A stretch of DNA of 52,443 nt, the filler included, from Catajapyx aquilonaris (taxonomy: Eukaryota): the NCBI GenBank assembly GCA_000934665.2. It is 2 parts of 2 records of this genome, joined end to end, with 100 filler letters (N's around TTAATTAATTAA, not from the genome) between each part and the next. Parts side by side here need not be neighbours in the genome. Positions count along the whole stretch, not along the records: positions 26,285 to 52,443 come from JYFJ02005242.1; 1 more part is not named here. The stretch is one strand, 5' to 3'. How positions within the stretch are numbered: position 1 is the first letter of the stretch; every line of letters starts with the position of its first letter. Below the pieces are notes generated by a model. That model was not told the DNA's origin and did no database searches. It was given only the letters and a program-made list of their open reading frames with translations. Position numbers and translations under genes: made by a program. Shown piece by piece: positions 26,285 to 52,443 of this stretch.

Positions 26285-26384
26285 TCAACATGTCCGTAAC
26301 CCGGCAGCGCCCAGGATTACCAACACATAAACACAAAAGCACATAAACAGTCGCGACATTACTTTTGCGGTCAATAGTACATTG

Positions 26385-26631: not shown

Positions 26632-27710
26632 TAAATGGCATATCTTTCTCTGTGTAGTGTAATTTTTTAAAAATATAATTGTTCGTTACTTACACCATTC
26701 TGTGTCGTTTAAACCAGCCCATGACTTTTGCCCCACCCTGTATAATGGGGCATATTTTTATGAATCATGTACACCGTAACTAATATTCAATCTAATTGCA
26801 GGTTGCATATTTGTAATAAGGTGTAACCAACAGGAACCAACAGACATTCCAAAATATCACCCGTTGTCCCAGGGTCATTCGGGATGCACATTTGCCATGG
26901 TTATGGCAGCATTAGTGCAGTAAGTACAGTAAGAGTCAATATGATTACTTGCCAAGGTGGCTGGTTAGCAAGCGACTTGGATGATGTATCTGGGAAGATC
27001 CAAACCACCATAGGATGATTCTCATGGTGGCAAAAGCTAAGCACTGTCATCTTCATGTTTAAATAATACATATAGCACGCTTGCAATGGTATTTTATCAC
27101 CACCTCCTCCTCACTCAACATTTTTGAAGTACACCAAATTTCGGGCTTGAAAATCTGGCCACCTTATACAGTAGTATTGGCCATTGCTACATTGTCAATC
27201 TTTGTGCAAGCAACTACTACGACAAAAAAAAACCTGTTTCACTGTATAATACATGACTCATAATTAACCAAGTTTCCTTTGCCATTGCCATTGAAATTAA
27301 AATTCCACGGATTGTGGACATTTGAAAGAAGAATCCAGAATTTCAAACTTGGTTAGAACAACTCAATAAACAGAGATGAAAAAACAAATTGTCACTTTTT
27401 AGTTCGATTAGGCCTACTATTAGGAACAACCTGCACTAAAAATTAGGCCATATTCATGAGCAGACCATGTGTTAAAACTGTTGGAATATTATTTGGAAAA
27501 CTGAACAAAGATCTGATATCATCAAGGTTTCCATGAAAATACCCTCACAGAACAATATGAGTAAACAGTATCAACAAAAAAGCACCAATGGAAGAAACGA
27601 TGACGTCAGATTGTCGTTTTGGTTTTCCGCACTCTAGACCTCTCTCGTCACACCATTTCCGACCCCCGTGGCCATCGTGAGAACATGCACAACCTGCATA
27701 ATTATCTCAC

Positions 27711-28103
27711 CTGGTTTTGCCTTCCGACGCCTCCTTCACTTCCACCAGCTGCCTCCTCCCTGTCTGGATCAGGGTTGGCCTCCTGCCTGTTCCTGCTCTC
27801 CTCCTCTGCGGCTGACCCGGGGTCACTTTCCTGGCTGCTGTTGCCCTCCTCTGGCTCCACCTTGACCATCCTGACTCCACGGGCACTTCTTCCTTTCCAA
27901 CATTCCTTGACCATCTCCGCCTCCTCCTTGGTGAATCGGACTGTGACCTCCACTGGTTCCTCCTCCTCCTCCTCCTCTGGCTCCACCTTGACCCTGTCCC
28001 ACTTGGAGTGAGTGAAGCTGTGCGCCAGCAGATCAATCTTTCTCTTGAAGACGTTGTTGGGGCACTGGGTACAGCGGAATCTCCCCAATTTCATAATCTC
28101 CAT
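27711..28103 (-). CDS. Putative C2H2 zinc-finger / acidic protein exon
   Basis: GCCATGG start. CTQC-x13-HSFTH finger, Glu-rich tract, two VKVEP motifs. Upstream ttccag acceptor and CAG|gtgaga donor at 27710. The rest of the gene was not identified. Confidence 0.5.
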
Positions 28104-28122
28104 GGCTGATGGGATGATGATG

Positions 28123-28123
<1 letters not shown>

Positions 28124-28161
<38 letters not shown>
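28124..28161. repeat. (CT)n microsatellite
   Basis: Pure dinucleotide run. Confidence 0.95.
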
Positions 28162-28163
<2 letters not shown>

Positions 28164-28877
28164 CAACCCGGCACACTTTGTCTGGAATAAAGAGGAGTGA
28201 TTGAGACCCATTCCCTCTCTTCATGCTCCCCAACCAGACCAGGCCCCACAGAATAACGTGCTCACCTTGCAATATACCGTGGGCTAGTCCACACACTAGG
28301 CACTTGGTGGTGAGCTGTATGCCGGTGTATCAGTGAGGCAGGCGACACAGGTCTCCAAGCTTGGGACTGGTTTCTGCTCCCCTACACCAGCCCTACACTA
28401 CAACACAGCTGGCATCGTGACAGAATCCACCCGCCCACCCCCTAGCTCTCTGGTCCCTCTGGCTGGCTTCAATAATGCTCGCGGAGAGGCCCCAACATGT
28501 GGCCGTTGTAGTGGAAGCGGGAAAGACAGAAGGCGACACTGTCTTTGACTGTTTCAGTACTTTAATAAATTTACGTTTATATATTTTTATTTCATACCTA
28601 AATGTATATAGAAATTGTACTAATATACCAGTGCGATTTTAAATACGCATTTGTCGCACTATGTACGATTTGGCAACGGTCTTCGAGGGACGGAGCCTAA
28701 TTGCGGCACTGTAGATCTACGCGGAAAAAGGGGGTCATCCGAGGGTCATCACGTCATCACTCATCAGTTGACATTTTATTTCATGTCATTGTACGCTTGC
28801 TAACGTCACGAAATTTCTTTGGGAGCGCTCTAGCTACCTGGATTCGAGTTACTTAATTACGAAAAATTGCGAAGCAA

Positions 28878-31814: not shown

Positions 31815-32468
31815 TAAGCACATAATCAGGCCACAACTTGGAATTTGAAATTTTCTAATTTTCTACATGCCAGTATTATTATGTGTCGTCACCACCATAT
31901 GACGCCAGCCTCTTAAGTGATGGTGACACTGAGGATAATAGAGACAGCCTTACTGCATTAGATTCGACCCAACAAATGCGAACATTTCTCATGCACAGCG
32001 TGCCTTGGAGCATGTAAGTAGGCCTACTCCACAGCAGGGAACGCACATGTGGCCTGAAATATATCAAAAGAAGGTTGACATGAGAAAACAGACCTCACTA
32101 CTTGACTAACAATTGAAAAGTTTCAAGTATCCCATACACTTCATGAAGGAATGGCAGACTGGTGTACACTTCCTGGATGGAGGGCGTACGTTCGGTGTTG
32201 TGCATTCTAACACCTTTAAGACTTACTTTTGACACTCCTTTCTTTCAATGTTCAAGTATACTCGTAATTAATACAAAATCCCATTAATAGAGTGCACATT
32301 TACTATGAGTCTGTGTAACTCTCGAAAATGACGAATACATTCTGACTGTACAACAGCAGAGTTCGACACGCTGGGGAGACTCTGATTGTGCCAATTTCCC
32401 GCCTTACACCAAGTGCTGCATAACAACAACCAGGTCACATAGCCTACCCTCACACCACTGGTCCCAGG
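31815..32468 (+). pseudogene. Deleted relic of a B-type cysteine-rich gene
   Basis: 31815-32325 aligns with 50335-50820 (upstream of B2). It is closely followed at ~32370-32468 by GDSDCANFPPYTKCC..., homologous to B2 exon 3. Exons 1-2 are absent. Confidence 0.75.
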
Positions 32469-34360
32469 TGAAGTGCACAAATATGGCATGTGCATGTTTG
32501 ATGATCATAACTGATGTACTGTACTAGTGAGCATTCAACAAAAGTAAATTAATTAAATTATTTTCTCCAAAAAACCTGATATGTAATCAGGAATTTTAGA
32601 GAAAATAATTTCATAATTTAAAAATATAACTATTATATGTCAACTTAATGTTTTAAATTCACTGACAGCTCTAACAGTAGGCCTACGTGTAGGAAATGCT
32701 TTAATAATTCAGGGTACAAGTTGGCATTATGTGGGGCGTTTAATAATTCATAACTTAACGCCCTATACACACACTAGGCTTTTGATCAAGTTTTATAGTC
32801 CTGACAATCTATCTGAAGTCGATATCCCTAGTTAATTTGAACAGTCTTTGCAAGAAAAGGCTATCGTGGTTATGGAGACTGCCATACGTGAAAAGCATGT
32901 TGTGCTGAATACACATGATAAAGCGCCTTTAGTTTGTCTTGTGATTCAGGATCTTTGGATTCACGTTGTTTCTTAATCTGACTGTTAAAACATGGAAAAT
33001 TCTGCCATGACTTTTCAGGAGTACAGTGTCATTGGAGTGATATAAACTCAATTCGAGGGTGCGTGAACCTTGCGAGTCTGATGCTCCAATTTGGATGAGG
33101 CACACGATCTTGTCGCATATGACTGTTATTTATTCAGTGAGAAATATAATTTAACTGCCGACATTCGGAGAGGGAATCTTATGAAGCTTATGAATTACTT
33201 TCATGAAATTAGGACTAAGAAAATTGGATTCTCAAAAATTAATCGCGTTTCTGCCAGCACGCCATGATTATTTTATTGTTTTAAGGTGCGTACTCGTATG
33301 CTGCAGCAAAATTATGCGAATATTAAAATTTAATCCCTGAAAACTGGAAGCGATTCACCTCTACCTTGGACAGAGAAGGTGGCAATGGTGATGTGGACTT
33401 CTACCGCACCTGGCTGCTGGTGAGTAAGCTATACTTAGAAATGTAGGTGCACATTATGCAGCACTTCTATTCATTTCATTTCTAAAGCAATACGTACAAT
33501 GGAATGCTATTCTTTTGTCTGAAATATGCTCGCCTTTTCTTCTCTGAGATGTGCTGAGCCTTCTGTTCATGAAGGCCATTTTGCACGTAACCCGAAATGA
33601 TAATGGGGATTGTGCACTGTACGAACCTGGGAGAAGCACGTGATAATGAGGTGATGCCAGGGACACCTACGCGACACTTCTCAAAGAGAATGAGCAAGTT
33701 CCATAAATAAATGTAGGGTTGAACAGAATTTTCAAACAATATCATTAAGCCGCACGCTGAATGACATCTGAGCAAATAAGCAGTGTGTAATATATTGATC
33801 TTACAAAAATTACAGTACATTTCTTTCATTGTCCCTCATAAATATTCGCAGTCGTAAATTAAAATTACACATTCGATATTGACACATTCCTCCTCCTGTA
33901 ATGAACAAATGGGCACAAGATATTTTGGTGAGAGTGAGGTGTTGGTCGGAATGAAATTGGTGATGGTGAGATATACTGAATTAGCAGATATTATTTGTTT
34001 TCACTACAGAAGAATGCAGTACAGGCCTCTGTAGCCGTGTAAAATATGAAATAATACTCTGCGCCCAGTGTTTGTAATCAGTGATAATTTTGTAAATTCC
34101 TGGACATGCGGGTAGGTAACCGGATACAACTAGGTGGCTTGGAAGTGAAGTAAGCCAATATTGGGCTAATGTTTTATGCGCACTCGTTTACATGATTCCT
34201 CCAGAAGTACCACAATAAATGTCATTTGTTTGTCTAGTGATAGTCCTTCACAGCGATCTAATTCTTTAGAAACGAATTTTTGCAGTTTCTTCGCTTCCAT
34301 TATTCTCCAACATAATGGCTTTTTGAAAAGAGCATTTTCTAAGCGAATGATTGGCAGCTC

Positions 34361-34417
34361 GGTTTGCATAAATAACCATGCTGATCAGTGACTATCAATG
34401 AGGCTCGTGGCTACATC
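34361..34417 (+). promoter_or_regulatory. Conserved non-coding block upstream of A1 (56/57 identical to 40975-41031 upstream of A2); candidate promoter/5'UTR
   Basis: Much more conserved than its flanks. Contains TTTGCATAAAT and an Inr-like TCAGT. Confidence 0.45.
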
Positions 34418-34696
34418 GTGGCTTGTATCTGGCCGCCCACAAAAGCGGGTAGGGGGATCAAGGTGGATCATTTAGAGCTCCTGGGCACACTCTGAAACAA
34501 CGTCCTAGAATTGCCTGAAGTTCGAGACCAAGACCAAGCATCTTTAACAGTAAGTGAGTTGCTTTAGTAGCTTCATTCTTCACTCTTTCACTCTGCATGC
34601 TCCTGTAATGCGCTATTTTATTGTGATGGCAACTTGCGACTAACATTACACTACTCCTGTTCGTGTCCATCAGCAGGCAATCAGTCAAGAATAAGG

Positions 34697-37613
34697 ATGG
34701 GCAAGAACTACATGATCATTATGGGCCTGCTTGTGGTTGTTGCTGTCGTTCCTGCTTTGGGAGAAGGTGAGTTGCTGGGATAATAAGAAACATTTCTCGT
34801 GAATTTATAAGCTATTTTTTTCCTTATCTTATACAGGAAAACGAATGTGCACAGCCATCTCTAGTACAACATGTGGACCCAAAGAGTGCAACACCGAGTC
34901 TGAATGCGGGCAGTATCAAAGATGCTGCAACGTGCAATCGAAATGTGAAGCTACATATCCACGATGTAAGTAGCCTACCTATATCTTAATATTAATGAAC
35001 ATATAACCGAAGAAAGTGTCAGTTTGTTGCTTAGTGTGCTAGCCAGGGGTGTATGTAGCATTTACCTTGAGTTACTCACATGTCAGCATATGCAAGCAGT
35101 ATAAGACACTATTTGCCTTTGATTTTTGTGCCTACCCTCTTACACCAACAAGTACCATAATATCCCTGAAAGCATCGCAACTTCAAAGTAACCTGTTTGA
35201 AATAAGCCTCCGAAATGATTGTACCCTACCTGATCAGATGATCTAATCTAATGAACTGATTGAACCCAAATTTTTTTTTTTGACTGAACAATTTCAATTC
35301 CATGGCATGTTTAAATGACAGACTCTGTAATTTCATTTTTCTCCTTGGAGTGATTGCACTTGACGTGAAAAGTAGCCTTTGGACGAAAATGTTCTGAGCA
35401 AAGTGTTAATATAACTGAGCAGATAATAATAATTATCATGCAGCTCTAACCAGTGAATAAATAATATATGTTTCACTTCCAAAGTGACCACTGACAGCAA
35501 CGTAATTCCCAAAATGAATTTTTCTTTCAGATTCAGTGGGTTTTTGCACGGATCCCGCGGACGGTATGAGGAATTAGATGAAGAAGGGTTTAAAGAGTGC
35601 TCCTCAAATGAGCAATGTAAAAAGACTCCATTTACCACGTGCTGCATAGAAAATCATGCACAGGCCGGACCTCCTATCGAATCCGCCAGTAAGTTCAATG
35701 TTAATTAAATGGCTACATACACAAACAATGTTAGTTATGTATAGCATGTTATTATATCCCCACGAACATATAAATTGCCGTAATTAAGCCCATACCCGTA
35801 ATTGTATAATTATGTGCTAATTCTTCACAACCATTTACCTCGGTCACCTACAAAAAAAAGCATGTTTTTTCCCTTAGTGCCGTATGACTGGAAAAAAGCA
35901 AAAAAACACGTCACACGTGATGGTAGGTGAAAACTGCCCAGTATAGTGTCAGTAGCTATACACATTCTCTGTGTTATACCATTTCGGTAGGGATTGAGCG
36001 GGGAATAAAATGCAAGGATTGGCTAATAACTACTACAGTTGACTCTAGAATCTAGATATAACAGCTTCGAAAGGCCGGGCCCGCCATACATCCATAAGGC
36101 TCTTTGAATTTTTACTAATGATATAACATACTCATTTTCACCTCACCTCGGCTATCTATAACAGACCATTTTTTGGGATCTCGGAGGAAAAATAAGCTGT
36201 TTTTGATTCTTCAAATTCATTTTCTACGTTTAGGAAGGCATGGAATACTGGAGGGGGGAGATTTTCGCATATGCCATTGATCTACGCCACTCAATGCATT
36301 TTCTGGTACATTTGGGAACAAGGAGATGGCAGAATAAAATTGCAGATTTATTTGGTCCTGCGTAATTTATGGGTGAGCTAATTTTGCTCAATAAGGATCT
36401 CTAAAGATGTGCTTAAAGAATTGAGCCTATAAGTGATAATGCAATCTTCACCTATCACACCTATCTTACATTGAAATATTTTAAATATGAATAAATAAAT
36501 GGTTTTCTGGAAAATTATAGACGCCGATCTCATATATATATTTTGCACAAAAATCTTTTGACTCCGCCATTATCTGATCAGGAATGTAACAACACCCAGT
36601 GGAATCAATTGTAACAAACTAAATGGCATTACGACTGAATATTATGTAATATTTTTATTGTACTCCTTAGCTGATAAAAACAACGTTTGCCAGGACAAGG
36701 CCGGATTTTACATCAGAAATGACGATAATTATACGGACTGCTATGGAAATTCATATTGCGAGGAAACATTTAAAGGCACCACATGTGCCTTCCTGTTCCA
36801 GCCATGCTCCTGTAATGGCGAAGGAGGTAAGTGCATCTGGTTTGTTAATATTTTTCTCATCTCCCTTCACGCAACACTGGACTTCCTAACGATGCCGCAC
36901 TTTTTCAGGGGTCCAATACGGTGTGTGCATCAATGAAAACAAGACCTGCTCTCCCGACTGCGCATGTACTAATGACTTGAACTGTGCCGCGGGTTACACA
37001 TGCTGCACACATGGAAGATCCTCGGAATGTGCTTGCGCAAAAAGTGAGTACTTTATTACAACCAGATGTCTGCTATGAAGTTATGAGGTACCTGTACTAC
37101 GAGGAGTCGGATTAATACAAAGTCGCATAAGTTCACTTTCATGAAAAATGAGCTGAGTATAGTCTACTACATTAATTGGTATAGCTTATGGTAGACTACT
37201 CCCCATCTCCTCCTGAGGTCAGAACACACCAAATGTCCCTAAAGTCCAAGCACGAAAAACCGGAGAGTGCGTATTAGCATAGTATGAATATTTTGCGCAT
37301 CCTGCGTTTGTTTTATTACCATGCAATGTATGCGACACTTAAAAATGGCACCAATTTAACATGCCTTAATTAAATTCCAGGCCAAGAATGCCCTTGCTCT
37401 AAGGAACCGGTCTGCGCGAGCAATGAGAAGTCATGCTCTTCCGACGATGACTGCAAAGACCAAGGAGAAAAATATCTGTGCTGCGAACAGCTTGTCAAAG
37501 CGACTAGTTCTTGCCCGATCCCAATTGTCGGCAGCGTTGTCTCCTTTTCATCTGGATCCTCCTCCTCTACTAAATACGAAGTAAAGAAATTCTGCACAGC
37601 TCCCACCCCCTAA
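34697..37613 (+). pseudogene. Secreted cysteine-rich WAP-like multidomain protein, copy A1 (frameshift in exon 3; pseudogene or sequence error)
   Basis: Exons 34697-34766, 34837-34965, 35531-35688, 36671-36826, 36909-37043, 37381-37613, all GT-AG and phase 1. Signal peptide MGKNYMIIMGLLVVVAVVPALG. Collinear with copy A2. Exon 3 is 158 nt (not 3n), giving a TAG at 35575-35577. Confidence 0.8.
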
Positions 37614-39204
37614 GTCAGTATGGAATAGGAAAAACTGTACAAGGATATTGAGAGAATGACGACAATGTTTTGGGACATGAAATGCTAGAAAAGGAGGCAT
37701 GAAAAGACATCAATTTAATTTCTTTTATTTTCTGTGGTGAAAGTATGGTCCAGCATATAGACCAACATAGCTTGTAATAGCAGAATAACTAATTCTCGCT
37801 AATTCTACATTTTGCTTTAATTCGAATTAATTTTTCAGTCAATTACTGACTCTCTTCCCTGCTGGACCACACGTGTTTTGATTTTATTTGACTTTTTGAG
37901 GCTGACTATATTCATACAGTAGCCATTGGGGTTTAGTTCAGATTAAGGTGGTGGGTTTTTGGTTGGGGTATGGTGGTGGGTTTACTTTGTATTGATTGGT
38001 ACCAATAAATTATGAAGTGACGCAACATAACGAGGGCATTGTTGTTTCTTATTTGACCCTAGCAGGATAAGCAGTACATATCCCAGTAATTAAAGCACTT
38101 AGATGTGACCTCTGAGGACAAATGTGTTGTCACCTGTATTCCCATTTTAGGGGCCAACAAACTCTTTTGAACTTCACCCAAATAACAATTTTGGCTGCCT
38201 GAACTTACGATTAAATTAACAGTTTCGTGTAACAAAATGTCAAACATGCCCTTATGTGCTTGGGAGGTTTTTAAATTATGAAGCCGAGTCTAGTCAGAAT
38301 AACAGAGCAGCCCTATGAAGCCATACAAAAGAAGGCATCATTTTGTTGAACATGTCTTGAAATGTTGCAACCCTTTTGTCTCCACTATAGGTACAGTACA
38401 TCAGATGTCTTCCTGTGCTAACTGAATGCTTACAACACTAACGACAAGTTAGACCTGTCCGAGACATGTGGCATCATTTTATCATCCTTTCTCAAGTATG
38501 CACAAGGAAAGAGCACACCACAAGCAACCACTTGAAAATGATTGCTGGAGTAAACAATCTACAGTTCTTCACCTCTTGGACTGTGAACTTGGGCAGTGCA
38601 CCATCCTGTACACATGTCAGTTGCCAAGCACCAATACAACGCAAGCTCTACAATTTTGTAGCGAGTAAATGTCATCAACAGAAGTCCTTACTCCTTACCC
38701 GCTACGGGACACCCTCTATTCGGGAGGCTTCTTCCGGTTTGTGCAGTGATTTTAGTGCACTTTTTGAAATATATTGAGCAATTCCACAGATGAGGTGGCA
38801 CCGGCTCATACACACAGTATACTCTACACCGTGGCAACGGATCATGGGTTTGACTGTATTGCGCGAATGAAATTTATTACTTCTACACTACAGTATAATG
38901 CATTCAGTCTCAAAGGAGTACTGTATTGATGTCACAAACAACCATCTTGGATCTTGCTAACAATTGAAGGCTTTTGTAGTCGGTGCTATTCAAAGGCTGA
39001 ATACATAATCTTACTATACCACGAGGTCAGTAGTTTCCCATAGGTGATGGAGATACCAGATATTTTCACCATACATGTATCTCCACAAATATGTCCATCA
39101 GGGTAAGATCTGGGCTTCTGGGGGTGTTATAGGCACTGGGAAAATTTTTATTCACGACTTCGCACAGTGGGAGGCTGAACAAGTGAGTGGAAGGATTGTT
39201 TGTA

Positions 39205-39500
39205 TGCAGCTACTTTTCATGTGTATCATCAGGAAAAATGTTTGTGGTGTAAAGAACAATCACCTCCAGCACCTACGGGTTAGGATTGCAGCCGTATCTC
39301 CAGAAACGATTGAGTGGGTTTGGCTCGAGACCGAATAGTCTTTTTTATTTCTCGAGCGACAAATGAAGCTCATATCGAAACAAGCTAATGTGAGACCAAA
39401 ACTTTAGACATTTCTTAACATTTAAAAACTTAAATGATTTAGATATGTGTACAAGTTTTCGACTTATAAGGTTTTAAAATTGGGACATTATTTTTTCGAT
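39205..39500 (+). mobile_element. Degenerate Tc1/mariner transposase C-terminal remnant
   Basis: Translates as ..HLQHLRVRIAAVSPETIEWVWLETE*...RATNEAHIE, resembling the mariner-like C-terminus (..LRERI..VTPEML...W.E.EYR...RATNGAH.E), with a stop and a frameshift. Confidence 0.6.
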
Positions 39501-41350
39501 ATTTTTTTACTTTTTTCTAACTGTAATGCATATTGTGAGGCTTGAAAACATTCACCATCAGTACTAATGCCTTCACGAACTGTTTCATCACGCCTAGCTC
39601 GATATGTGTAAGCCTAATTATAAAGCTATATCCCCAGTGTAAATATCAATGGGTGTCCTTTCCCCCCCGAAAATCTCAAGTTTCAAATTGCATGAAAACT
39701 AGAGCATGCAGAGGAAAACCGATTTCAGATTTGAAATCAGCGTTGAAAACATACTTAGAATCAGTTGAAAAATCTCATGCAACAGAAAATACCTTTTTTT
39801 GGGTGGTAATCTTGGTCAAAATCACACGTACCGTCACTCTTGGTACCATATATCTGCCAGCACAGCATGTGCATTTTATAGGCCTACCATGTGAAGTTAT
39901 GCCGCAGCAAAAAAATAATTTAAATGTTAAAATAGAAGTCTGGAAAACTGCATGCAATTCAACTCTACTTTGAATATAAAATGTGTTATTGAAAATGAGA
40001 AGGTGAACGTCCACCGCATGTGCCTCGTGAGTGAACCAGTGTGGAAACCCCGTACATACACGGAATGTAAATTCATTTCATATAAAGAGATACGTATGTA
40101 CGCTGTATTTTTTTGTCTGGATTACTCTCTCATTTTATTATTTTGAGATGTACTGAGCCTTCTGTTTATATGAAGGCCATTTTTCACACGTCCCGGATGG
40201 TTAATTGTAAGAACTTGGTGTCCGCTGAGAAGTGGGTCTATAGCTAATGTTAAGATGTCAGGAACACCTACTGTACGTGGCACTTCATCAAAGGAATGGG
40301 CATTTCCCATGCGGCCAATAAATGTAGGGTTGCATTGACTTGCTACAAATTTGCATGAAATTTGCATGCTGAGTGATACCTGAACAAATCAGTGATGTGT
40401 AATTGATATGACAAAAATATAATACATTACTATAATTTGCCCTATTTACTTTTCATGTAATTGTAAACCACATTTAATAGATATCGACACATATATACTT
40501 CTCAGTGGTGAGCATATGAGCTCATGTTATTTTGGTGAGTGCAGAGCGAGCTGTTGGTCCGAATAAAAAGATCGTCATCATGAGCCAGAATTTATCTATG
40601 TCTTTCTTTCACTCAAAATGGAGTATTGCTCTCTGCATTCATGTAAGTACAGAATAATACAGCGTGCCCAGGATAGGTATAAACTTTTTATACTAAATGT
40701 TCGCAAATTGTTTGACATGCTGGTGGGCATCCGGGCATGACCAGAAGCTACGCAGTGCAAAAAAAAAAAAGTGGGCCAAAGTTTTATGAGCACTTGTTTA
40801 CCTGGTAACTCCGCTTCAATGAAAGTGTCATTTTTTTTTTGTCTAAAGTGCTATTATTTCAAAGCAGTTGATTATCTTAAAATGAAGTATAGAAATCAGA
40901 ATTTCTGCATCCATAATTCTCCAACATAATGGATTTTTACAAATAGCATTTTCCAAGCGAGTTCTTGACAGATGGGTTTGCATAAATCACCATGCTGATC
41001 AGTGACTATCAATGAGGCTCGTGGCTACATCTTGGATAGTATCTGGAAGCCTGTAAAAGTATATGGGTGGGGGATCAGTTCTGATCACCAGAGCTCCTGG
41101 GTTGGGTGTACTCTAAATCAACGTGTCAGAATTGCCTGAGGTTTGAGACCAAGATTGAGCAGCTCTAAAAGCAAGTCATTGACTACGACTTATAAAAGCA
41201 AGTCATTGGCTCATAGTTGATCCGTGTTATTTGTTTCACTCTGCATAGTCCTGTAAGTACCACTATGCATGGTTTGATTGTGATGACATCTTGTGACTAA
41301 CATTATACTAATGGTCGTGTCCTTCGTCAGCAGGCAATCAATCGAGAAGG

Positions 41351-44067
41351 ATGGGCAGGTACTACATGATCATTATGGGACTGCTTGCAGTTGTTGCTGT
41401 CGTTCCTGCTTTGGGAGAAGGTGAGTTGCAAGGAAATAAGGAGTTCTTGTGAATGTGAACCATGTTGTGAACCAACATGCTATTTTCTTACCCTTACAGA
41501 GAAAAGAACGTGCACGAAACTCGTTTCTCCGGGCGATTTCGACGGAAATTGTGGAAGCAAAGAGTGCACCAAACATACCGACTGCCAGGATGGCACATTG
41601 TGCTGCAACGTGGTGTCGAAATGTGAAGCTAAGTATCCAAAATGTAAATATCCGAATTACCGGTCTTACATCCAAAACGATTGTTACTTTGTTGCTTAGT
41701 GTGCTAGCCACGAGTGTATTTTACCTTGTGTTACTCACAAGTCAGTACAGTAGACGTAAGCAGATTAGTGTACGTTTGCCTTTTTGTGCCTATACTCTTA
41801 CACCAACAACTAACTACCCGCCATGAAAGCAACACTAAGCTCTAAATAAATTTCTATTGCAGATTCGGTCGGTCACTGCACAGATCCCACCACAGGAAAG
41901 TATAAAGAGAGACCCATCACACAGTGCCTGTCAGATTCCGAATGCTCCATTGCTCCTCATACTAGGTGCTGCATAGAAAAGCATGCGCAGGGCATACCTC
42001 CAACTAAAGGTAAGTTAATTACACGTATTTCATTAAATGGTTACCTGCACGTCAAACACTATTTTAGTGACCTATAGGGTGTTTACTAAATGTGAAAATA
42101 ATAATTATATTTACATTGAGCTAATATAGATTCACCATTACATACAGGGTGTTCCAGAGTTAACGACTCACTCTTTGAAACGCAATTACTTTCGAACGGA
42201 ACAACATATTTATTTAAAGTACGTACCAAAACATCAAGGGAGGTTGCGAAAATCTTCCATGTAGGTGACAGTACTAAGCAATGCTCAGGTCTTGCAACAA
42301 AAATGGCCGAAGCAAGACTGTCGTTAGAGAAACGTGTCCAGTGTGTTCGACTGTATTCAGTGACAAAAAATGTTACAGAAGTGTGCCGTCAAATGGCAAA
42401 CCTTTTCGGTGGACCGGCTCCTACCCGAAAAACTGTTGCGAGGATAAACCAACGGTTCGATGAAACTGGAAGTGTCTTGGATCAAAAGAAACCCGGCAAA
42501 GGGAGAACAGTTGTGAATGCAGAAAACAAACAGCGCATCCGAGATGCACTGGAAAGTTCTCCAGAAAAAGCAAAATCAGTCCGACGCCTGTGGGGTTATC
42601 AATGTTATCTGAAGGAAAAGGTTTACCACCATCGAATGGGCTCCCTGGAGCATCTGCTTGACATAATCACACAGGAATTCAACGCGATCCCTGTTGACTT
42701 CTGTCGGAAGGTCTGCGACAATGTCGCCTTGCGATTGCAGGCCTGCATTTGACGTGGAAGGGGGGTTGACCATACCATGGACCATACCAGGTCTTAAGTT
42801 AGTATTTCCTTGATGTTTTGGTACGTACATTAAATAAATATGTTATTCCGTTCGAAAGTAATTGCGTTTCAAAGAGTGAGTCGTCAACTCTGGAACACCC
42901 TGTAGATGCAAAATATGCTGTACAGTAGGCCTACATAAAAGCAAATATTTTTCGCACTGCCATAAGACAGTAAAAGAACAATAAGACAGTCATGAACAGG
43001 TGAAAAAAGTGTCTTGTGGCCAATCTCTAATTATTCAATGTCAACATGGCGGGTTGTCTTATGATAATCTGCTACAGTTAAATTTCTATTGCTCTTCCTT
43101 ACAAAAAATTCAGATGGCAAAAACATTTGCCAGGACAAGGAAGGATTTTTACGAAAAAATCCCAAGGACAATCAGGACTGCCTTGGAAAGAGTTCATACT
43201 GCCAGCAGTTTGGCGACGCCAAATGTGTCGAGATATTCAACCCATGCTCCTGCCTAGGCGAGAATGGTGGCAAGTGCATCTGATTAGTTCATACTATCCC
43301 TTTCTTGCAAATTCATGCAACACTGGGCGTTCTAATGGTGCCGTACTTTTCAGAGACATTCGGTGTGTGCAAGAACGAGAACAAGACATGCACCCCTGAC
43401 TGCGCATGTACTACTGACTTGCACTGTGGTCCAGGTTACACATGTTGCAACTATCCAAGATCCTTGAATTGCACTTGCGCAAAAAGTGAGTAGGCCTACT
43501 TTATTACACCAGATGTAAGCTATGAAGTTACGACTTACGAGGTGCCTGTAAGGTGCACTATGGGTTAGTTAGACTAATTGTGCTACACCCTGTGCACTGT
43601 TCATGTAGGCAATTATTATTATAGCGTCGTATCGTTGCGTTTATACTCACTCAATAGCCACGTACATAAAATGGGACGTTTTGGTTTAGCATAAAAATTA
43701 TCGCACGTCTATTTTTGTGCACCGTGTGTTTCTTGTTACCATGTAATGTGTGCGACACGTTGACACCAATTTAACACGTCTTTATTTAATTTCAGGTCGA
43801 GAATGCCCATGTTCTAAGGAACCGGTCTGCGCGAGCAATGAAAAGTCATGCGGGTCCGACGATGACTGCAAAGACCAAGGAGAAAAATATCTGTGCTGTG
43901 AACGGCTTGTCAAAGCGACTAGTTCTTGCCCGTTTATCCCATTATTCGGCTTCTTTGGCTCTCAGTCATTTTCAGTTAATCCCTTCTTTTCATATAGCGC
44001 CTCCTATTCATCTGGATCCTCCTCTTCTACTAAATACGAAGTGAAGAAATTCTGCACCACCCCATAA
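41351..44067 (+). CDS. Secreted cysteine-rich WAP-like multidomain protein, copy A2 (306 aa, 36 Cys)
   Basis: Exons 41351-41420, 41500-41643, 41863-42009, 43114-43269, 43354-43485, 43796-44067 splice into an open 921-nt CDS. Signal peptide MGRYYMIIMGLLAVVAVVPALG. Repeated C-x5-C-x5/8-CC modules. The intron 4 donor is GC, or an in-phase GT 3 nt upstream. Confidence 0.88.
42145..42902 (+). mobile_element. Tc1/mariner transposon, internally deleted, in intron 3 of copy A2
   Basis: ~95-bp TIRs (42145-42239, 42808-42902) flanked by TA. ORF 42303-42752 has the N-terminal HTH region fused directly to the C-terminal LWGY..LKEKVY..RLQACI region; the DDE/DDD core is missing. Confidence 0.92.
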
Positions 44068-46521
44068 GTCAGAAGGGAATAGGAAAAACTGTACAAGGAT
44101 ATTGATAGAATGGCAATAGAATGTAGGAGGCTTGAAATGACAACAATTTAATAGTATTGTCTTTTCTGTCGTGAAAGTGTGGTCCAGTACAGGCCAACAT
44201 AGCCTGTAAGCTCAGAATAATGAACCACATTTTTTTTTCATCCATTATTTGGACAATTAGTGTCTCTCTTCCCTTGACCACAATTAATGTTTTGATTTCA
44301 TTTGACTTTTTAAAGGCTGACTATGTAGACAGCAGCCATCGGGGTTTAGTTCAGATTAAGGTGGTGGGGTTTTGGTTGGGATGTGGTGGTGGGTTTACTT
44401 TGTATTTATGGTACCAATAAACATTATGAAGCAACGCAACATGATGAAGGCATAGTTATTGCTTATTTAACACTAACAGGATTAGCAGAACATTTCCCAG
44501 ATATGGAAGCACTCGTTTGTCAGCTGGTCAAATGTGTTTCCATTCGTAGTCTCCTTTTCGAGGTCAACAAATATTTTCGAACTACTTAAAAATTACAATC
44601 TTGGCTCTCTGAGCCATTAAATTAAACAGTTGTGTGTAAATTTTTTTTCAACTGCCTAAAACACTTCATCCACGATCTGATGTGTTTGGAAGATTTGCCC
44701 TGCCTAAGTTATAGATGAAAGCAGTTCTTTAAGATGAAGCAACACAAATAAAGAAGACACCACTTCGCAAAAATGTCTTCAGCTTCTTCTGGTTTGTGAA
44801 GTGGCGCCACAAGGCATGCTTTCAGTGCACTAGATGTAAGCCACTGCCACCTCATGCACACAGTACTGTGAACTGTGGCAACAGATACATCTGACGGCAT
44901 TGCACAAAAGTACTGCTACAGTGTAATGCATTCAGTCTCGGAGGAGTATTGACGTCACAACGAGCAACCATTTTGCTAACAGTTGAGGACTTTTGACGTC
45001 AGTGCTATCCTAAGGATAAATACATTTTAATTGCTTTCATTTATGTGGTGAAAGTGTGGTCCAGTATAGGCAACACAACCTGTAATCTCAGAATAATGAA
45101 TTACACATTTTTTATTTCACTCAAATTAATTATTCAGGCAATCTCTTCCCAGGACCACATGCATTTCGATTTTATTTGACTTTTTGCGGCTGACTATATT
45201 CATACAGCAGCCATTGGAGTTTAGTTCAGATTACATTATGTTTGGATTTTGGTTGGGGTATGGTGGTGGGTTTACTTTGTATTGATGATAGGAATAAATT
45301 ATGAAGTGAAGCAACATAATGAGGGCATCGTTATTGCTTATTTAACACTAGCAGGACGTTGCCCGGCCTAGCTGGTGACCACTTAGTTGTGACACCGGAA
45401 ACCAAATGTGTTGTCATACATTAGCCTGGTATGAGAATCGTTCTATACTGAAACATCATCGCCCCAGACTATAAAAGTTAATGCAGTGGTTCACCCACCG
45501 ATTAAAATGAGTTGCTTCTGACCATGCTCAGGACCAAGAGGGCTACTTAGATAATTATGTAGCCTGTATCATGTCATATTGCATTACTGTGCCTACAGGT
45601 ACAGTCTGAAGCAAAAAAGACATGCAGCACAAATGGGTCCCCACAGGCATCGCTGGGAATACTGGATTACAACTTTCAAATAATTAAATTGAATCTTGGA
45701 ATAATTGAAGCAATTTACCGCTTTATCTTGACGAAAAAAAAAGGTGGCATTGAACATGATCATGTGACCTTCCACCGTGGCTCATGAGTAACCTACGTTG
45801 CAAACCTCTACGTTATACATTATGTAAATTCATTTCATGTAAAGTGATACGCACAATGGAATGGTATTCTTTTGTCTGGAATATTCTCGCCTTTTCTCTC
45901 TCTCTGAGAAGTACGGAGCCTTCTGTTCATGAAGGCCATTTCGCACCTGTCCTGAAATGATAATGATGATTGTGCACTGTACGAACCTGGTGTCCACCGA
46001 GAAGCACCCGATAATGAGGTGATGCCAAGGACACCAACGGGACATTTCTCCAAAGGACTGGACACTTCCCACGCAGCCAATAAATGTCAGGTTGCACATA
46101 TTTTCTAAATGTGCCACATGCCATGTAAGATCTGAGAAGAATTGAACTGTGCACTGAACAGCACATGTGATATATTCTGCAGGTACTGTACACGTACATT
46201 AAATTAATTCAAACTATTGTCATCAACATCAATTATGGCAGCAGTTCAAAGAGTGGTACATGAGTGGCCAGGCTTCTTAGAGCATCCAAAAAATTTAATA
46301 AGCTCCTGCATGTAAACCAAGGAATGACATACATATTGTTTAAATTATTTTCAGTGGTTTTCCATTTTACGTCACTAATAATAGCAGGCAATAATTTTGG
46401 ATAACTTTTTAAAAATATTTTTCTGACCCAAAAGTTGAGGCAATTGAAATGTTGGTGGATTTCTTTCTAAAATGGGCAATTTCACCATTGGTGCAACCAC
46501 CAGCCATAATTAGCATGAGAG

Positions 46522-46813
46522 CCACCAAAGGAGGTTGGCATAGTGGATAAGGCGTCCGACTGCTAATCGGAAGGTCCTGGGTTCGAATCCCGGTGCCGGC
46601 AACTCTAACCGTGGTTTTCTGTGGTTTCCCACGGTTTCTCCAGGAGAATTCCGGAGTTGTTTCCTAATAAACAGGCCACAGCCGCCCCCTTCCTTTCCTA
46701 TCCTCTCCCAAAGAGCAATAAGTAAAAATGCAAGCAAAGAGTTCCAGACAAAACAAAAAAATTCCCCCCTAAAGAGCCGCCGGCTGATAACGGGGCATGA
46801 ATTATTATTATTT
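46522..46813 (+). mobile_element. tRNA-derived SINE (family 1), full length
   Basis: Box A TGGCATAGTGG, box B GGTTCGAATCC, (ATT)n tail, 13-bp TSD attagcatgagag (46509-46521, 46814-46826). Confidence 0.88.
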
Positions 46814-47734
46814 ATTAGCATGAGAGTGATTTTCAGGAATTTACACTAAATAATTACAAATTTTGCTAATTGTACCAACTGGCTCCTATAATCATAGGCT
46901 TGCTTTCATTTTTCTCTATTGTTCTAAATTCTACTCTGCTGACTCACAATTACAGGCAGTTATATAAAGCAGAAGAACTCTGCTTCTATTCACGTGACTC
47001 AGTTACCAGTTGGCATAAAATTATCATGCAAATTACTGACTCTCAAATTAATCTCGTGGCTTGTACGTGGCTCGATTTCTGCCTTACTGCACAAGTACAG
47101 TCGAGCCAGATCAGTCTTCTAGAGCAGTCTACTCGAAATATTTTGAGCAACGATAGCTGATAGAATACACCGACAGATAAAGTAAGTTTCCTTCTGAAGA
47201 ACGCTTCTAAATCACCCGTGTTTTTAGAAATGGTTTTTATATCAACCATTTAAATACTGCCAACGAGCGAAGCGGAATTGATAAAGAGGGGGGGAAATGG
47301 GGGTTTCTAATGAAGTGGACTCGATTTTTAACACATTTGTGCGGGGGGGCCGTGTCGCATAAAATTTACCCATGCCATTAACTTCTTGTGTCATCATCGC
47401 TTGTTTCTCTGGGGAAAAAGTTCCAATGAAATGATTGAGTTACATCAGTGTGTTACTCTTTCAATGAACATTGCAGTCAGCTAATAAATACAGAACCACA
47501 ACAGTTCTGCACAAAAAGAGGCCACTATTGCAACAGTAGAATAGATCATGAAATTGGAACCACAGACTTCATTTTGCCATTCCCGCAGTTCACTGTTTTC
47601 AGTCGGATTCTTTGCAATACCTTTAGCATTAGTTATGAACAGTATTTCCTTATCTGAAAATTTGACTCCTGGGTTTTTAAATGTTATCTACGCGTAGTCA
47701 CTCTCTCCATCTAATTTCCAGGCAATCGAGAAAG

Positions 47735-49254
47735 ATGGGCAAGGAATACATGATAATTGTCACCGCTGTAGTGGTCATGGCTGCTCTTGGAGTAGATGGT
47801 AAGTAAGCCTTTTACTTATGACGTCAGGCATCCTTTTAAATTTTGAGCAGGCATATATTATTAAATTAATTTCTACATTGCAGCACAGATCATAAATCAG
47901 AACAAGTGCACAAATCCTGACGGGACATGCAGCCCGACTGTTTGCAAAGCTCATGAAGATTGTGCCATCATATTGCCCAAATCTTCATGCTGCCAGTCGC
48001 AGCTGCCAAAATGCTTAGCCAGTCCCCCACCAGGTAAGAGGCCGCATTGTTATCAATAATGCAGAACAAGAGATACTATGGAGCTGGCAAAGTTCTTTGC
48101 ACTGACTCTTATTGGTTACAAATTGCTAGTACTGTGCGTTGAGTCCAACATCTCAGCTTTGCATCTATGATTTGCAGTATTAGCCTTCATTTCGAAAGGA
48201 CCACTTCAAGAATCATTTGAACCGAACAAAACAAATGTTTGGCTTGCTAACACTCTTAGGTTCTTTGGCGAGGAAGAATTCGGGCGATGAATATCCACAG
48301 TAACTTGTCAGAAAGAACCCTGAGGCTGTGAACCTCGTCATGATTTTGCGTTTCAGAATGCCTCGGTTTCTGCCGGGCCGGAGAAACAGGCGAGTTCTAC
48401 AACAAGACTTCTCCAGATGGGACTACAACATGCTGCAAAACTGACTTCGATTGTGTCAACTTAGACCCTTACACCAAGTGCTGCGTCCCAGAAAACAGAC
48501 CAAAGGCGCCCAAGGCGAACCCGGGTACGAGTTAGCTACATATATTTTATGTCCAGATAACATATTTTTCCCCAGAATCAGTGGTCACAACCTGCCCGAC
48601 TTGAATAGACAGTGACATAATGATTCAGTCACACTTCAGGCGCTCTGTTCCACCAGCCTTTTATACCCTCATTAAGCTATATCTCTATAGTGTAACTCCG
48701 CTTAAGGGTAATCCTTCTCATGCCTGGTTAACATTCTGTGACGACAGATGTCACCAATAGCTACAAGCTGTTCATTACTACATTAATAAAAAAATATTCA
48801 CCTCGCATAATGCTATCATTCAGCTGCCTTCGTCGAATAATCATATGTTCAAACACACAACATACGGACACATTATTGCACATAAAAATAGAGCCAAAAA
48901 GAAACATTTTAGTATTAACCTTAACGTAGCAAGATACTCTTACAGACCAGTCAGAGAAGCGTGACCTCAAACATTGATTATAAATGACAAATTTTTACAA
49001 TGAAGTGTTCAAATTTCAGGTGACAAAGGGGCATATTGCCAGGAAAATAGCGACAGAGGGTGCTTCTTAAACATCCCCTGCGGAGAAAATCCATCGGTAT
49101 GCCAGAAATACAATCCTGAATATGAATGTCGCATCTGCATGCCCCCATGTAACTGCACGGGTAAGTGCAATTACTACTGTTCAAATAATCACCTTCACCT
49201 ATTCCAAATATTACAGAACTTTTTGTCCAACTTACAGATAGAGCTATAGGCTAA
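47735..49254 (+). CDS. Secreted cysteine-rich WAP-like protein, short paralog B1 (~179 aa, 22 Cys)
   Basis: Exons 47735-47798, 47884-48033, 48357-48524, 49020-49160 and probable terminal exon 49238-49254 (DRAIG*). All introns phase 1 GT-AG. Signal peptide MGKEYMIIVTAVVVMAALG. Exons 2-4 are homologous to A-type exons 2-4. Confidence 0.85.
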
Positions 49255-51449
49255 AAACATTAGGACGAACCGATATACACGAGCAAGGCCACGGCAACGA
49301 ATACGACCGAAAAGAACATGAGACAGAAATATTCCTTGCTGTGTTGCATATACACAGGGTCAAATCATCTGTCCATGCAAATCCCTTGCTCCCTTTGATT
49401 TTGTTTCTTCCCTTTTCACTTACCGCTATTTTTCTGAATTTGTATGCAAATATTTACGTTCACTACACGGATGACCAAGTGCGCAGAGTCAGTTTGTGTA
49501 CATGAGATGATAATAGAGTGAACATACATATTTGCAGCCGGCATTTGACTACAGAGGCATATATTCAAGCCTGCAATGACTACAGCGAATTTATTTTTCA
49601 AATCCTGGTTAATCCTTTTATTTTTGAAACTCTGAATTCCTTATTGTATTGCAATTCAGATTTCTTTTCATTTTACTTTATTGTACGGTTGACTACATGG
49701 CAGCCATTTTGTGGGGGTTTAGCGTAGAATTACATGGTGTTGGGATTGTTTGGATGGTGGTGGGTTTGTGACATCAATAAGTCGCAGAGTGATCATATTT
49801 CGTGGCTTATTTCATGTGATGTAATTGAATTTACCATGCATATATGAATGGTTCACAATAGTTTCCAGAATAGAAGACTTGAAATGCAGCACAATCCGAG
49901 TCATACTGTGGGCGACATTGAGGAAGGCATTTTTTGGTTGCTGTAGAAATCTGATCGAGAAACTCCCGAGAGAGAGAAAAAAAAAGCATCGCTTAAAGAA
50001 TAAAGTCATCTTCAGAATTATTTGAAGCCCTCTTACCTCAAATTCTCCTCCAATTTTTATTAAAGGTTAAACTTTTTGGTTGTGCATATCATATAAAAAC
50101 ACTGCCACCTGGCAGAATGACCAATGGAGTATGAAATCAGTAATGCATTTGGTAGTATATTATGCCATTCAGATAAGAACCAGAACCTTAACAAGTCTCA
50201 CCTACTGATCCTGATTACTTGCTCATCGTTCAAGGCACAGAAGCTAATTAAAGAACGAAAAGTTGGCCAAATTTTCATTACGGATTAATACACATGCACA
50301 GTTGCCCTATTTACAACCCGTTTTGTTTTCAGGGTAAGCACACAATCAGGCTAACTTAAAATTTTCTACATACCTGTATATTTGTCACCACACGACCTTA
50401 TGACACCGGTCAGCCTCTTAATTGATTGCGACGTTGAGGATAATCGAGTTGCATGACTTAAAGTCACAGCCTCACACCTTCCTCAAGGGATTCCACTCAA
50501 CAACTGCAAATTTTTTGGAGCATGTACTACACAGCAGGGAAAAGGTGCACCTGTGGCCTGAAAAATATCAAAAGAAAAACGACATAAGGAAACAGACCTC
50601 ACAACGTATTCAGTTGATTGCCTAGGGAATATTCCATATTTCATGAAGGAATTGGCTGGTGTACACTTCCTGGATTGACAGCATGATTATGTTCTACTTT
50701 AGGCTAACACCTGTTAAGACTCTCTTTTGCACCTGTCATCTAGGACTATTAAAGTGCCGGTAATTAAAAGAAAGTCCCATTAATAAAGTGCACACTTACT
50801 AAGAGTCTGCGTAACTCTCTATATTTATAAATATATTCTGTCTGTTCTAGATGTCTAAAACAATGCTTTAAAAACAAATTTCTTACACCGTATCCTTGCA
50901 CTAATACCAGGGGTCTGAACACACATAAAGTATTTAGGCTGAGCTGCACCACTCCAAGCAGATTGTCCAAACCAATAAATTGACACTAACAGTGAATTAG
51001 CAGTTAGAATGAAATCGTGTCATGACTACCTTTGGTCATGCTACTTCTGCGTTGTAAATTTTGTGACGCACTGACAAATTGGTGCTGCAGGTGTTCGTAA
51101 TGCGATTCAAATGACCTATTTATATCTTGGCATAAAATTAACATGTTCATGACTGCCTATTCGTCAAACATGCGGCTAGTGCGTGGCATGCTTAGACTGG
51201 CTTCATAAGTGTTACAGAGTAGGATTACTTGACCAGAGAAGTAAGCAGCATATTTGCATGCAAAATATTATTAGCAACAATTCCAGAAATCTGTAGAAAA
51301 ACTCAGCTGCATTAGTAAGTTAGTATATTTGAAGACTACCCATGTCCTTAGATCAGAGCTTTCCATCCACTTAGGTATATTCCGGCACAAAAATTTTAAT
51401 ACTCCAGAGAGTGCAGACCCTGCACTCTATTCAACACATAGGCAAGAAC

Positions 51450-52138
51450 ATGATAATTATTGTCATCGCAGTGGTAGTCATTGCTGCATTGGGACAAGAT
51501 GCAGGTCAGTTTACATCATACGCAAATCAGTCACTTTTGCATGCGACTGCATTATTCTTGTTACCCCTGCATTGTTGCAGAGAAGACATGGTGCACAATA
51601 AGTGATGCTGCATGTGGCAAGATGTACTGCACAGATGATGAGGATTGCGATCATCCTGTTCTGTCGACATGTTGCCAAGAGGTGCTGCCACAATGTCTGG
51701 ATGAACAACCGGATGGTAAGACCCTGAATTGTTGGAAATAATAGTGGCCAAGTAACAGAGCTGACAAATAGTATTATGTGACACTGTCTTACAGTCACAG
51801 TGCATGTTCTGACTGTGGAATAATTAGAGGCTACCTTTCCTCATGACATGCGTAGCCTATGACATTTGAAATGACTACTTTTGACCTTCCGGCATTTGAA
51901 GTTAATGGTTAGGTCCTAAATGCAAAAAACTGAAGCTAGAAATCTCATCATGATATTGCCTTTCAGGTGTGCTCGGTTTCTACCGTAATGGAACAACCGG
52001 AGAGTTTGACCCCAGTTCACAGTCATTGGTATCCTCAAACATGCTGCAGGGGAGACTCAGATTGTGCCAACTTCGCACCTTACACCAATTGCTGCGTACC
52101 AACAAACAGGCCACGTACCCTCAAGCCACTGGTCCCAA
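51450..52138 (+). pseudogene. Secreted cysteine-rich paralog B2 (frameshifted exon 3; may continue beyond window)
   Basis: Exons 51450-51504 (MIIIVIAVVVIAALGQDA), 51581-51715 (EKTWCTISDAACGKMYCTDDEDCDHPVLSTCCQEVLPQC...), 51967-52138 (172 nt, 3n+1). Homology to B1 exon 3 switches frame between about 52008 and 52040. The conserved GFC reads GFY. Confidence 0.75.
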
Positions 52139-52443
52139 GTAAGATGCAAAAATATTATCTGTCCGTGAAATTAATCTCTACTTCTGACTTGCTTGGCGGT
52201 CACAAGCATTGAACTAATGAGCATACAACAAGCATGATTAACTGCATGTAATCAGGATTAGCAGTGATAGTTCCTGAAAACCAGAGGAATGTGAATAACT
52301 TTGATCTCACCATATATTATAGTCACCGAGACATCACACTCTCTCAGACGCTCGTGGGAATCAGACGTCTCGTACACAGCTCCTGCTTGGGTGAACCCAC
52401 ATTACCGGGTCGATTGAATCACCCCAGTTACCCGCCGTTGAAT

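Follow-up and report, generated by a model that had tools for sequence, protein, structure and literature searches.

Genomic organization of the cluster

The sequence studied here is a window of 52,443 nucleotides from the genome of Catajapyx aquilonaris (assembly GCA_000934665.2), in which two records are joined end to end with 100 filler letters between them, the second one (JYFJ02005242.1) starting at position 26,285. Between 32.4 and 52.1 kb, this second record carries a cluster of four genes in the same orientation (A1, A2, B1 and B2) and one relic exon, all of them related to a family of predicted secreted, cysteine-rich modular proteins (Table 1). The cluster comprises two clean genes (A2 and B1), two doubtful ones (A1 and B2) and the relic. 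The DNA around it is of animal type, with a guanine plus cytosine content of ~38-42%, short exons and many repeats. Cysteine-dense pieces follow one another among the plus-strand stop-to-stop open reading frames (ORFs) between 34.6 and 52.2 kb, and the gene models were built by picking splice sites by phase between these pieces. Each model starts with an exon that contains the ATG and encodes a hydrophobic N-terminus with A-L-G at its end, followed by three to five cassettes of ~45 codons, with phase-1 introns throughout. The splice sites are GT-AG with good consensus, the sole exception being the GC donor of A2 exon 4, and the acceptor cag/GCAATC upstream of the ATG is kept in A1, A2 and B1.

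Spliced in this way, A2 encodes 306 residues with 36 cysteines, B1 encodes 179 residues with 22 cysteines (its stop ends at 49254) and A1, under its sole frame-keeping model, encodes 308 residues with 35 cysteines; the B2 model leaves the window after exon 3. These models reproduce the original prediction, made from the sequence of the window, of four co-oriented paralogues plus a relic with a common signal-peptide exon, as well as its figures for A2 and B1. That prediction also took the even cysteine numbers to be consistent with full disulfide pairing, which is true of A2 and B1, whereas A1 has an odd number. The exon-1 products of all four genes contain 13-15 hydrophobic residues, then A-L-G preceding the mature part, and would thus be secretion signals as judged from their sequence; a short start bearing K or R is found in A1, A2 and B1 and is absent in B2. 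The A-type genes have the layout signal-e2-e3-e4-e5-e6-tail and the B-type genes signal-e2-e3-e4 plus five residues (modules being named after their exons), with proline-rich linkers and, in A1 and A2, a serine-rich tail. The predicted mature proteins have 160-286 residues and isoelectric points (pI) of 4.4-7.0, i.e. acidic to neutral, and cysteine makes up 12.2-13.8% of them vs 4.0% of the background ORFs. The repeated C-x5-C-x5/8-CC modules originally proposed were recovered with the pattern C-x5-C-x5..9-CC, which has 12 matches in the 649 stop-to-stop ORFs of the whole window (at least 40 residues, both strands), every one of them inside a predicted plus-strand exon and with spacings of 5-5, 5-7 or 5-8. 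The idea of extra family copies at 1-31 kb was dropped, as a tblastn comparison of every module with the window found none there.

Table 1 Positions, in the window, of the exons of the cysteine-rich cluster, with the evidence for each
Feature	Position	Strand	Evidence
Relic exon, B-type exon-3 core without the leading cysteine pair	32375..32446	+	tblastn E = 1e-9 to B2 exon 3
A1 exon with ATG and predicted signal peptide	34697..34766	+	Hydrophobic N-terminus ending ALG; donor AAG/gtgagt; 87% amino acid identity to A2
A1 e2, 7 Cys	34837..34965	+	Phase-1 acceptor and donor; Cys spacing 7-4-5-5-0-5; Pfam WAP E = 0.025, 15.3 bits, sub-cutoff
A1 e3, 4 Cys, acceptor uncertain	35485..35688	+	35485 is the only frame-keeping acceptor; predicted
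A1 e4, 6 Cys, distinct type without CC	36671..36826	+	Splice sites, Cys spacing
A1 e5, 9 Cys	36909..37043	+	Pfam WAP E = 0.071, sub-cutoff; AlphaFold2 pLDDT 72.8
A1 e6, 9 Cys, Ser-rich tail, stop 37611-37613, 3' untranslated region (3'UTR)	37381..38023	+	X5 contig 37454-38023, depth 24.7; AATAAA at 38004
A2 exon with predicted signal peptide	41351..41420	+	Spliced translation, splice sites
A2 e2, 7 Cys	41500..41643	+	Splice sites, Cys spacing
A2 e3, 5 Cys	41863..42009	+	Splice sites, Cys spacing
A2 e4, 6 Cys	43114..43269	+	GC donor GTG/gcaagt; 51% amino acid identity to A1 e4
A2 e5, 9 Cys	43354..43485	+	Splice sites, Cys spacing
A2 e6 and tail, stop 44065-44067, 3'UTR	43796..44436	+	X5 contig 43869-44436, depth 12.5; poly(A) signal at 44416
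B1 non-coding first exon, 5' limit approximate	47107..47181	+	X5 joint 47181/47722, GT..AG, 75 nt on the short side
B1 exon with ATG (47735) and predicted signal peptide	47722..47798	+	RNA joints at both ends; translation
B1 e2, 7 Cys	47884..48033	+	RNA joints; Cys spacing
B1 e3, 7 Cys	48357..48524	+	RNA joints; Cys spacing
B1 e4, 8 Cys	49020..49160	+	RNA joints; Cys spacing
B1 last exon: final 5 codons, stop ending 49254, ~1 kb 3'UTR	49238..50268	+	Joint 49160/49238; contig end 50268; ATTAAA at 50247
B2 exon with predicted signal peptide, ATA at the family start codon, next ATG 51450	51450..51504	+	DNA alignment with B1
B2 e2, 7 Cys	51581..51715	+	Splice sites, Cys spacing; no X5 cover
B2 e3 core, 5 Cys, in frame only via a non-homologous acceptor	52016..52138	+	DNA alignment, Cys spacing

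The DNA alignment of A1 and A2 shows that A1 retains the acceptor homologous to that of A2 exon 3 (exon start 35531). If this acceptor is used, downstream indels shift the frame and a stop follows after 15 codons; the frame is only kept through a weaker AAG acceptor at 35485, in which case exon 3 lacks its N-terminal cysteines. Despite this exon-3 stop, exons 4-6 of A1 are intact, with cysteine number and spacing identical to those of A2 and ratios of nonsynonymous to synonymous divergence (dN/dS) of 0.21-0.78 at a synonymous divergence (dS) of ~0.5 in this single pair of short exon sequences. Therefore, either the alternative exon-3 site would be in use or the gene would have been disabled recently. 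In the alignment with B1, B2 has ATA where the family has ATG. Its exon 3 has lost its two N-terminal cysteines and carries a net +1 indel, because of which the exon-3 core is in frame only through the acceptor at 52016: the homologous acceptor persists near 51966, yet splicing there leaves the core out of frame, and an out-of-frame remnant of exon 3 lies at 51972-52007. The relic is the sole further significant copy of a module that tblastn detected in the window. Its region is 82% identical to 52046-52155 over 116 nt (blastn), and no partner exons were found near it by tblastn.

Two other stretches resemble parts of these genes. A segment of the A-type 3'UTR occurs a third time at 45023-45356 (80% identical to 37711-38067), ~0.6 kb downstream of the point (44436) where the X5 contig over the A2 3'UTR ends. 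No coding exon was seen next to this copy, which may be what is left of a further A-type gene. On the minus strand of the B1 3'UTR, 49849-49923 matches the core of the B-type e3 (44% identity over 25 residues, E = 0.18), which would be either a chance match or a decayed inverted exon copy.

Transcription and splicing

This DNA was found in five sequencing runs, namely four DNA-type runs of one sample and a small run, X5, with 17% of the words. The type of X5 is unrecorded, and it was treated as RNA-like since one of its contigs skips GT..AG introns that are not skipped in the DNA run X1. Contigs from X1 and X5 were aligned to positions 32200-52199. The X5 contig over B1 (1642 nt, depth 89) joins the five introns of this gene at 47181/47722, 47798/47884, 48033/48357, 48524/49020 and 49160/49238, all of them at GT..AG borders and at the predicted positions. 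No B1 intron joint was present in X1, in which a contiguous contig of 4857 nt runs over 46782-51638. As the introns are skipped in X5 and present in the DNA run X1, the joined form derives from RNA, and all B1 junctions are confirmed. The contig also extends B1 by a first exon without coding sequence and by a last one made up of five codons and ~1 kb of 3'UTR. B1 gives rise to a spliced messenger RNA terminated with a polyadenylation signal.

Other X5 contigs correspond to the 3' ends of A1 (37454-38023) and A2 (43869-44436). Together with that of B1, they end 19-21 nt past the poly(A) signals at 38004 (A1), 44416 (A2) and 50247 (B1). For A1 and A2, transcription is thus shown for the 3' end at least. 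RNA-type support for junctions is confined to B1, those inside A1 and A2 being predicted. B2 has no X5 cover, and missing cover, here as in the 5' exons of A1 and A2, is no evidence of silence. Two positions of A1 exon 6 differ between contigs: one X1 contig has T for G at 37403 (depth 36.6 of 73.8), and the X5 contig has T at 37534 where X1 has G. These are possible allelic differences.

Module anatomy and evolution

The modules were compared in a set of 15 sequences from A1, A2, B1 and B2. Their cysteine counts are 7 in e2, 4-7 in e3, 6-8 in e4 and 9 in both e5 and e6, with one CC pair per module and two in the B-type e3, and the corresponding modules of the A-type and B-type genes align with each other. 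After the CC pair, e2 has one cysteine, e5 has one at x7 and then one at x1, and the core of e6 has one at x9. When a profile of e2 was scored against 300 composition-preserving shuffles of the other modules, the real score was reached by 0-2 shuffles for e3, 0-1 for e6, 3 and 17 for the e5 sequences and 59-116 for e4. Likewise, hhalign placed the e2 core in the same register with e3, e5 and e6 (P = 0.0003-0.006), with low probabilities of 6-42%. Since e3 and e6 beat the shuffles and e5 does so more weakly, four of the five module types share one small core, C-x5-C-x5/7/8-CC, usually with D/N or E preceding the second cysteine. By contrast with these four, e4 is a separate module type, and the idea that all five types descend from a single module was dropped because e4 is no nearer to the others than shuffles are. 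In pairwise comparisons within the 15-module alignment, cysteine positions are kept in 64% of cases and other positions in 16%, which fits the usual picture of conserved cysteine positions, a fixed cysteine scaffold with free loops.

The cysteine sums of adjacent modules are all even: e2 and e3 together have 12 cysteines in A2 and B2 and 14 in B1, and e5 and e6 together have 18. It is because of these even sums that disulfides between adjacent modules may be postulated. A complex prediction of B1 e2 with e3 scored 0.00 with an uncertain partner fold and is informative neither way.

Between A1 and A2, dS is ~0.5 and dN/dS amounts to 0.21 in e6, 0.43 in e5 and 0.65-0.87 in e2-e4, values that come from single pairs of short exons and do not demonstrate positive selection. 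Between B1 and B2, dS ranges from 0.7 to saturated, this pair being older than the A1/A2 pair.

Comparison with known families

The modules were scanned against Pfam at E up to 10. WAP (PF00095) matched four of the 15 modules (E = 0.021-0.2; a separate scan gave E = 0.071 and 0.21) and is the only Pfam family to match more than two, each of the others being restricted to one or two modules; the matches in e2 and e5 cover positions 5-34 and 2-39, respectively, of the 41 positions of the WAP profile. The WAP matches are all sub-threshold, and the proteins could not be assigned to a named family, in agreement with the original prediction. WAP proteins (SLPI, elafin, waprins and the single- and double-WAP proteins) are similarly secreted and made of ~45-residue modules with a C-x5-C-x5-CC core and D/N two residues before the second cysteine. 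In WAP (WFDC) genes, as here, a signal exon is followed by phase-1 exons with one module apiece, and the final coding exon is tiny. The WAP signature, written in PROSITE style as C-x-{C}-[DN]-x2-C-x5-C-C, is found in full in two of the 15 modules (both e5), and its first half in 11. The modules described here are unlike WAP in that the loop after the second core cysteine often has 7-8 residues instead of 5 and in their odd cysteine counts. After its CC pair, a WAP domain continues as C6-x3-5-C7-x3-4-C8. Overall, the core resembles the C3-C6 part of the WAP four-disulfide core, a likeness that does not establish membership.

The original prediction had also mentioned crustins. Those of crustaceans and hymenopterans are, like the proteins studied here, secreted, cysteine-rich and present in multi-copy arthropod families. 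They possess a complete C-terminal WAP domain with eight cysteines and, in Types I, II and V, a 12-cysteine signature (PMC9680087, available in part). Here, the C-terminal e6 is no complete WAP domain, B1 ends in an e4-type module and the 12-cysteine signature is absent. The suggested WAP/crustin likeness survives as sub-threshold matches to WAP, while the features that define the domain and the charge of crustins (see below) do not.

Other similarities are architectural. Secreted cysteine-rich repeat proteins (SCREPs) are a descriptive architecture and not a homologous family; as set out in the part of PMC6262176 available, they combine a signal peptide with tandem cysteine-rich domains as 'combinatorial repeats', an arrangement that corresponds here to M-M-X-M-M (A-type) and M-M-X (B-type). 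The proteins of the cluster have an N-terminal secretion signal, judged as above, and at least two mutually alignable cysteine-rich domains (e2, e3 and e6, and weakly e5); compared with SCREPs, identity between repeats is low, 16% at non-cysteine positions. Granulin offers another comparison, with a twelve-cysteine module containing four CC pairs, which is not matched by the one or two pairs seen here. The inhibitor cystine knot has a six-cysteine C-C-CC-C-C framework with knotted disulfides; the last six cysteines of e5 follow this order, but with final loops of x7 and x1. Finally, the bacteriocyte-specific secreted proteins of aphids are short, single-domain peptides, whereas three to five modules are present here. 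The resemblance to them lies in the signal peptide, the conserved cysteines, the lack of detectable relatives and the clustered paralogues that the available part of PMC3574423 reports.

Searches for relatives were carried out with single exons (42-90 residues) in collections that did not return the window's own proteins. In word-indexed searches, e6 gave 51 candidates among longer proteins and the profile of the 15 modules gave 737, and the alignment of e6 gave one among proteins of similar length; none of these candidates scored. An exhaustive HMMER search of 1.84 billion representatives with the e2 profile found no true relative, although a profile of 44 positions needs very high scores; its two matches (P0001 and P0002) were low-complexity repeat proteins and were rejected. 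Scans of metagenome contigs with e6 and e5 gave pattern matches and no relative. The original prediction proposed a lineage-specific effector family. An effector role, in venom, saliva or antimicrobial defence, is putative. The lineage-specificity stands insofar as no relative was found, but with searches of this power the results only weakly suggest a family restricted to one lineage.

Possible nature and function of the proteins

Several scenarios could account for this cluster. The one we favor, to which we would give an even chance, is that of an orphan or very diverged family of secreted cysteine-rich repeat proteins that have a WAP-like core and would serve as stable binders or inhibitors outside the cell. 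Tandemly duplicated and partly decaying genes would encode secreted, disulfide-locked 'beads-on-a-string' proteins of SCREP architecture. The signal peptide would be cleaved after the ALG motif and every module would form a small cystine-stabilised fold unit. The modules with odd cysteine counts (e2 with 7, e5 and e6 with 9 each) would be stapled to their neighbors, thus making two-module units joined by the proline-rich linkers. The family may have grown through exon duplication and tandem gene duplication, and the slowly evolving C-terminal e6 would stay constant, while the modules nearer the N-terminus, which diverge faster, would provide variable binding loops. In that case, the most likely role would be protease control or an antimicrobial-type defence exerted by stable extracellular binders or inhibitors.

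A number of observations weigh against this scenario. The best WAP score, 15.3 bits (E = 0.021-0.025), is below the gathering cutoff of 20.8, so none of the matches reaches it. The WAP domain has eight conserved cysteines that form four intramolecular disulfides (PMC9680087, available in part), and this eight-cysteine layout occurs in none of the 15 modules, in which the eighth cysteine is absent or misplaced and the counts vary from 4 to 9. Among the Protein Data Bank (PDB) sequences, profiles of e2, e3, e4, e5, e6 and all modules matched no WAP chain with E values of 10 or less; a phage tailspike gave the lowest value (E = 0.37) and is irrelevant. Crustins are described as cationic (PMC7401287, available in part), in contrast to the pI values obtained here. 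The inter-module disulfides are deduced from cysteine counts alone, and with its 35 cysteines A1 would keep at least one of them unpaired. A1 and B2 may also be pseudogenes, and the dN/dS values, with the scope given above, do not show positive selection.

One alternative is that the modules are true, highly diverged members of the WAP four-disulfide core superfamily (MEROPS I17 type), that is to say, degenerate WAP modules working as serine-protease inhibitors or crustin-like antimicrobials. The recurrence of WAP among the Pfam matches, the extent of the profile covered in e2 and e5, the signature present in e5 and the WFDC-like exon layout all speak for it. Nevertheless, it has to face the same sub-cutoff scores, the missing eight-cysteine layout and the empty PDB search. 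The insect genomes surveyed also have few WAP genes, 2-5 in each of four species, and no remarkable species-specific clades according to the available part of PMC5673224, so that genuine WAP genes would not be expected to form a private expansion in tandem. The fold says little either way: for AlphaFold2 models of e2 and e5, with predicted local distance difference test (pLDDT) scores of 74.0 and 72.8, no match was better than E 2.5 in Foldseek or Z 2.0 in VIA-align and none of the matches was a WAP chain, but such searches have little power for domains of 42-44 residues. All in all, we consider true WAP membership unlikely.

Conversely, the modules could represent a previously undescribed disulfide-rich domain outside the WAP family and restricted to one arthropod lineage. 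Adjacent modules would be covalently stapled across exon boundaries as rigid pairs, and recognition modules that change fast would sit N-terminal to a conserved C-terminal unit of e5 and e6, which would amount to a small, germline-diversified system of extracellular recognition or inhibition. This is a rather improbable possibility.

A structural extracellular material (cuticle, eggshell, adhesive or a silk-like matrix) is a third option, in which odd cysteines would bind modules to each other and molecules to each other, giving a stiff cross-linked network. The odd counts per module, the 35 cysteines of A1, the acidic to neutral pI, the proline-rich linkers and the serine-rich tail of A1 and A2 would be in keeping with it, as would the depth of the B1 contig, the highest among the X5 records listed, even though such depth reflects expression poorly. 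Yet there are no low-complexity structural repeats beyond a short serine run, Pfam found no chitin-binding or other matrix domain, and the quick divergence of the loops suits binding proteins better than a scaffold. We therefore regard this option as doubtful.

It seems much less probable that the proteins are venom or saliva toxins with knottin-like or prokineticin/Dickkopf-like modules that would act on channels or receptors of prey or host. Prokineticin, Dickkopf and colipase-fold proteins share a ten-cysteine domain. The C-x5-C-x5-CC motif does occur in granulin and in the N-termini of prokineticins, and e5 matched granulin A (E = 1.3, e5 core only) and Bv8 (E = 7.6) among PDB sequences; the look-alikes of e5 in the ESM Atlas carry Dickkopf_N, DUF7107 or EB (0.75-0.87, weak leads only), and DUF7107 was matched in one module by Pfam (E = 0.04). 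The granulin, Bv8 and atlas scores are nevertheless at chance level, the atlas had no usable match for e6 and no Pfam toxin family was matched. Related scaffolds are known from arthropod venom peptides, but the remipede venom peptides tabulated have 49-87 residues, against 160-286 in the mature proteins predicted here (PMC5577568, available in part).

Lastly, that the cluster is a set of chance ORFs or dead pseudogenes, as the A1 stop, the lost start codon, frameshift and lack of X5 cover in B2 and the presence of a relic could suggest, is very hard to reconcile with the exact splicing of B1 at the predicted sites, which refutes it for this gene, with the intact A2 and B1, with the low dN/dS of e5 and e6 (0.21-0.43) and the cysteine pattern shared by e4-e6 of A1 and A2, and with pattern matches confined to predicted exons.

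Fast-evolving secreted cysteine-rich families are common in animals and frequent in arthropod genomes, and many of the inhibitors, antimicrobials, toxins and matrix proteins of animals belong to tandem families of secreted disulfide-rich proteins. New scaffolds from such families are useful as stable binding frameworks. The cluster adds one transcribed example, with a module near WAP but outside its definition. Exons and modules correspond neatly in it, and gain and decay of copies can both be seen. Since families of this kind are common, its present value lies mainly in annotation and in the candidate that it offers for structural and functional work; it would become more important if the module turned out to have a new fold with stapling between modules.

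Repeats and other features of the window

Intron 3 of A2 contains the remnant of a DNA transposon (42143-42904) bounded by 97-nt terminal inverted repeats (42143-42239 and 42808-42904, 97% complementary). The ORF between these repeats encodes a helix-turn-helix domain, DUF4817 (Pfam E = 6.9e-08), and the element has a high depth in X1. Between A2 and B1, 46207-46873 is a very high-copy repeat, with a summed contig depth of ~128,000 in X1 and 4,400 in X5. A stretch of this repeat (46534-46601) resembles a transfer RNA (tRNA; Rfam, 45 bits), though ARAGORN did not call it, and the repeat is probably a tRNA-derived short interspersed nuclear element. The intergenic spacers also harbor, on the minus strand, long ORFs with similar translations (33482-33835, 40122-40388 and 45830-46198), which suggests a dispersed repeat family; the first and last of them had no Pfam match at E up to 0.01. 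Outside the cluster, a minus-strand ORF of 172 residues (27702-28220) had no Pfam match at the same threshold and combines an acidic, glutamate-rich stretch with a C2H2 zinc finger-like segment. Two runs of 44 Ns each (26185-26228 and 26241-26284) were taken as assembly gaps, and several single Ns are scattered between 9.7 and 22.2 kb.

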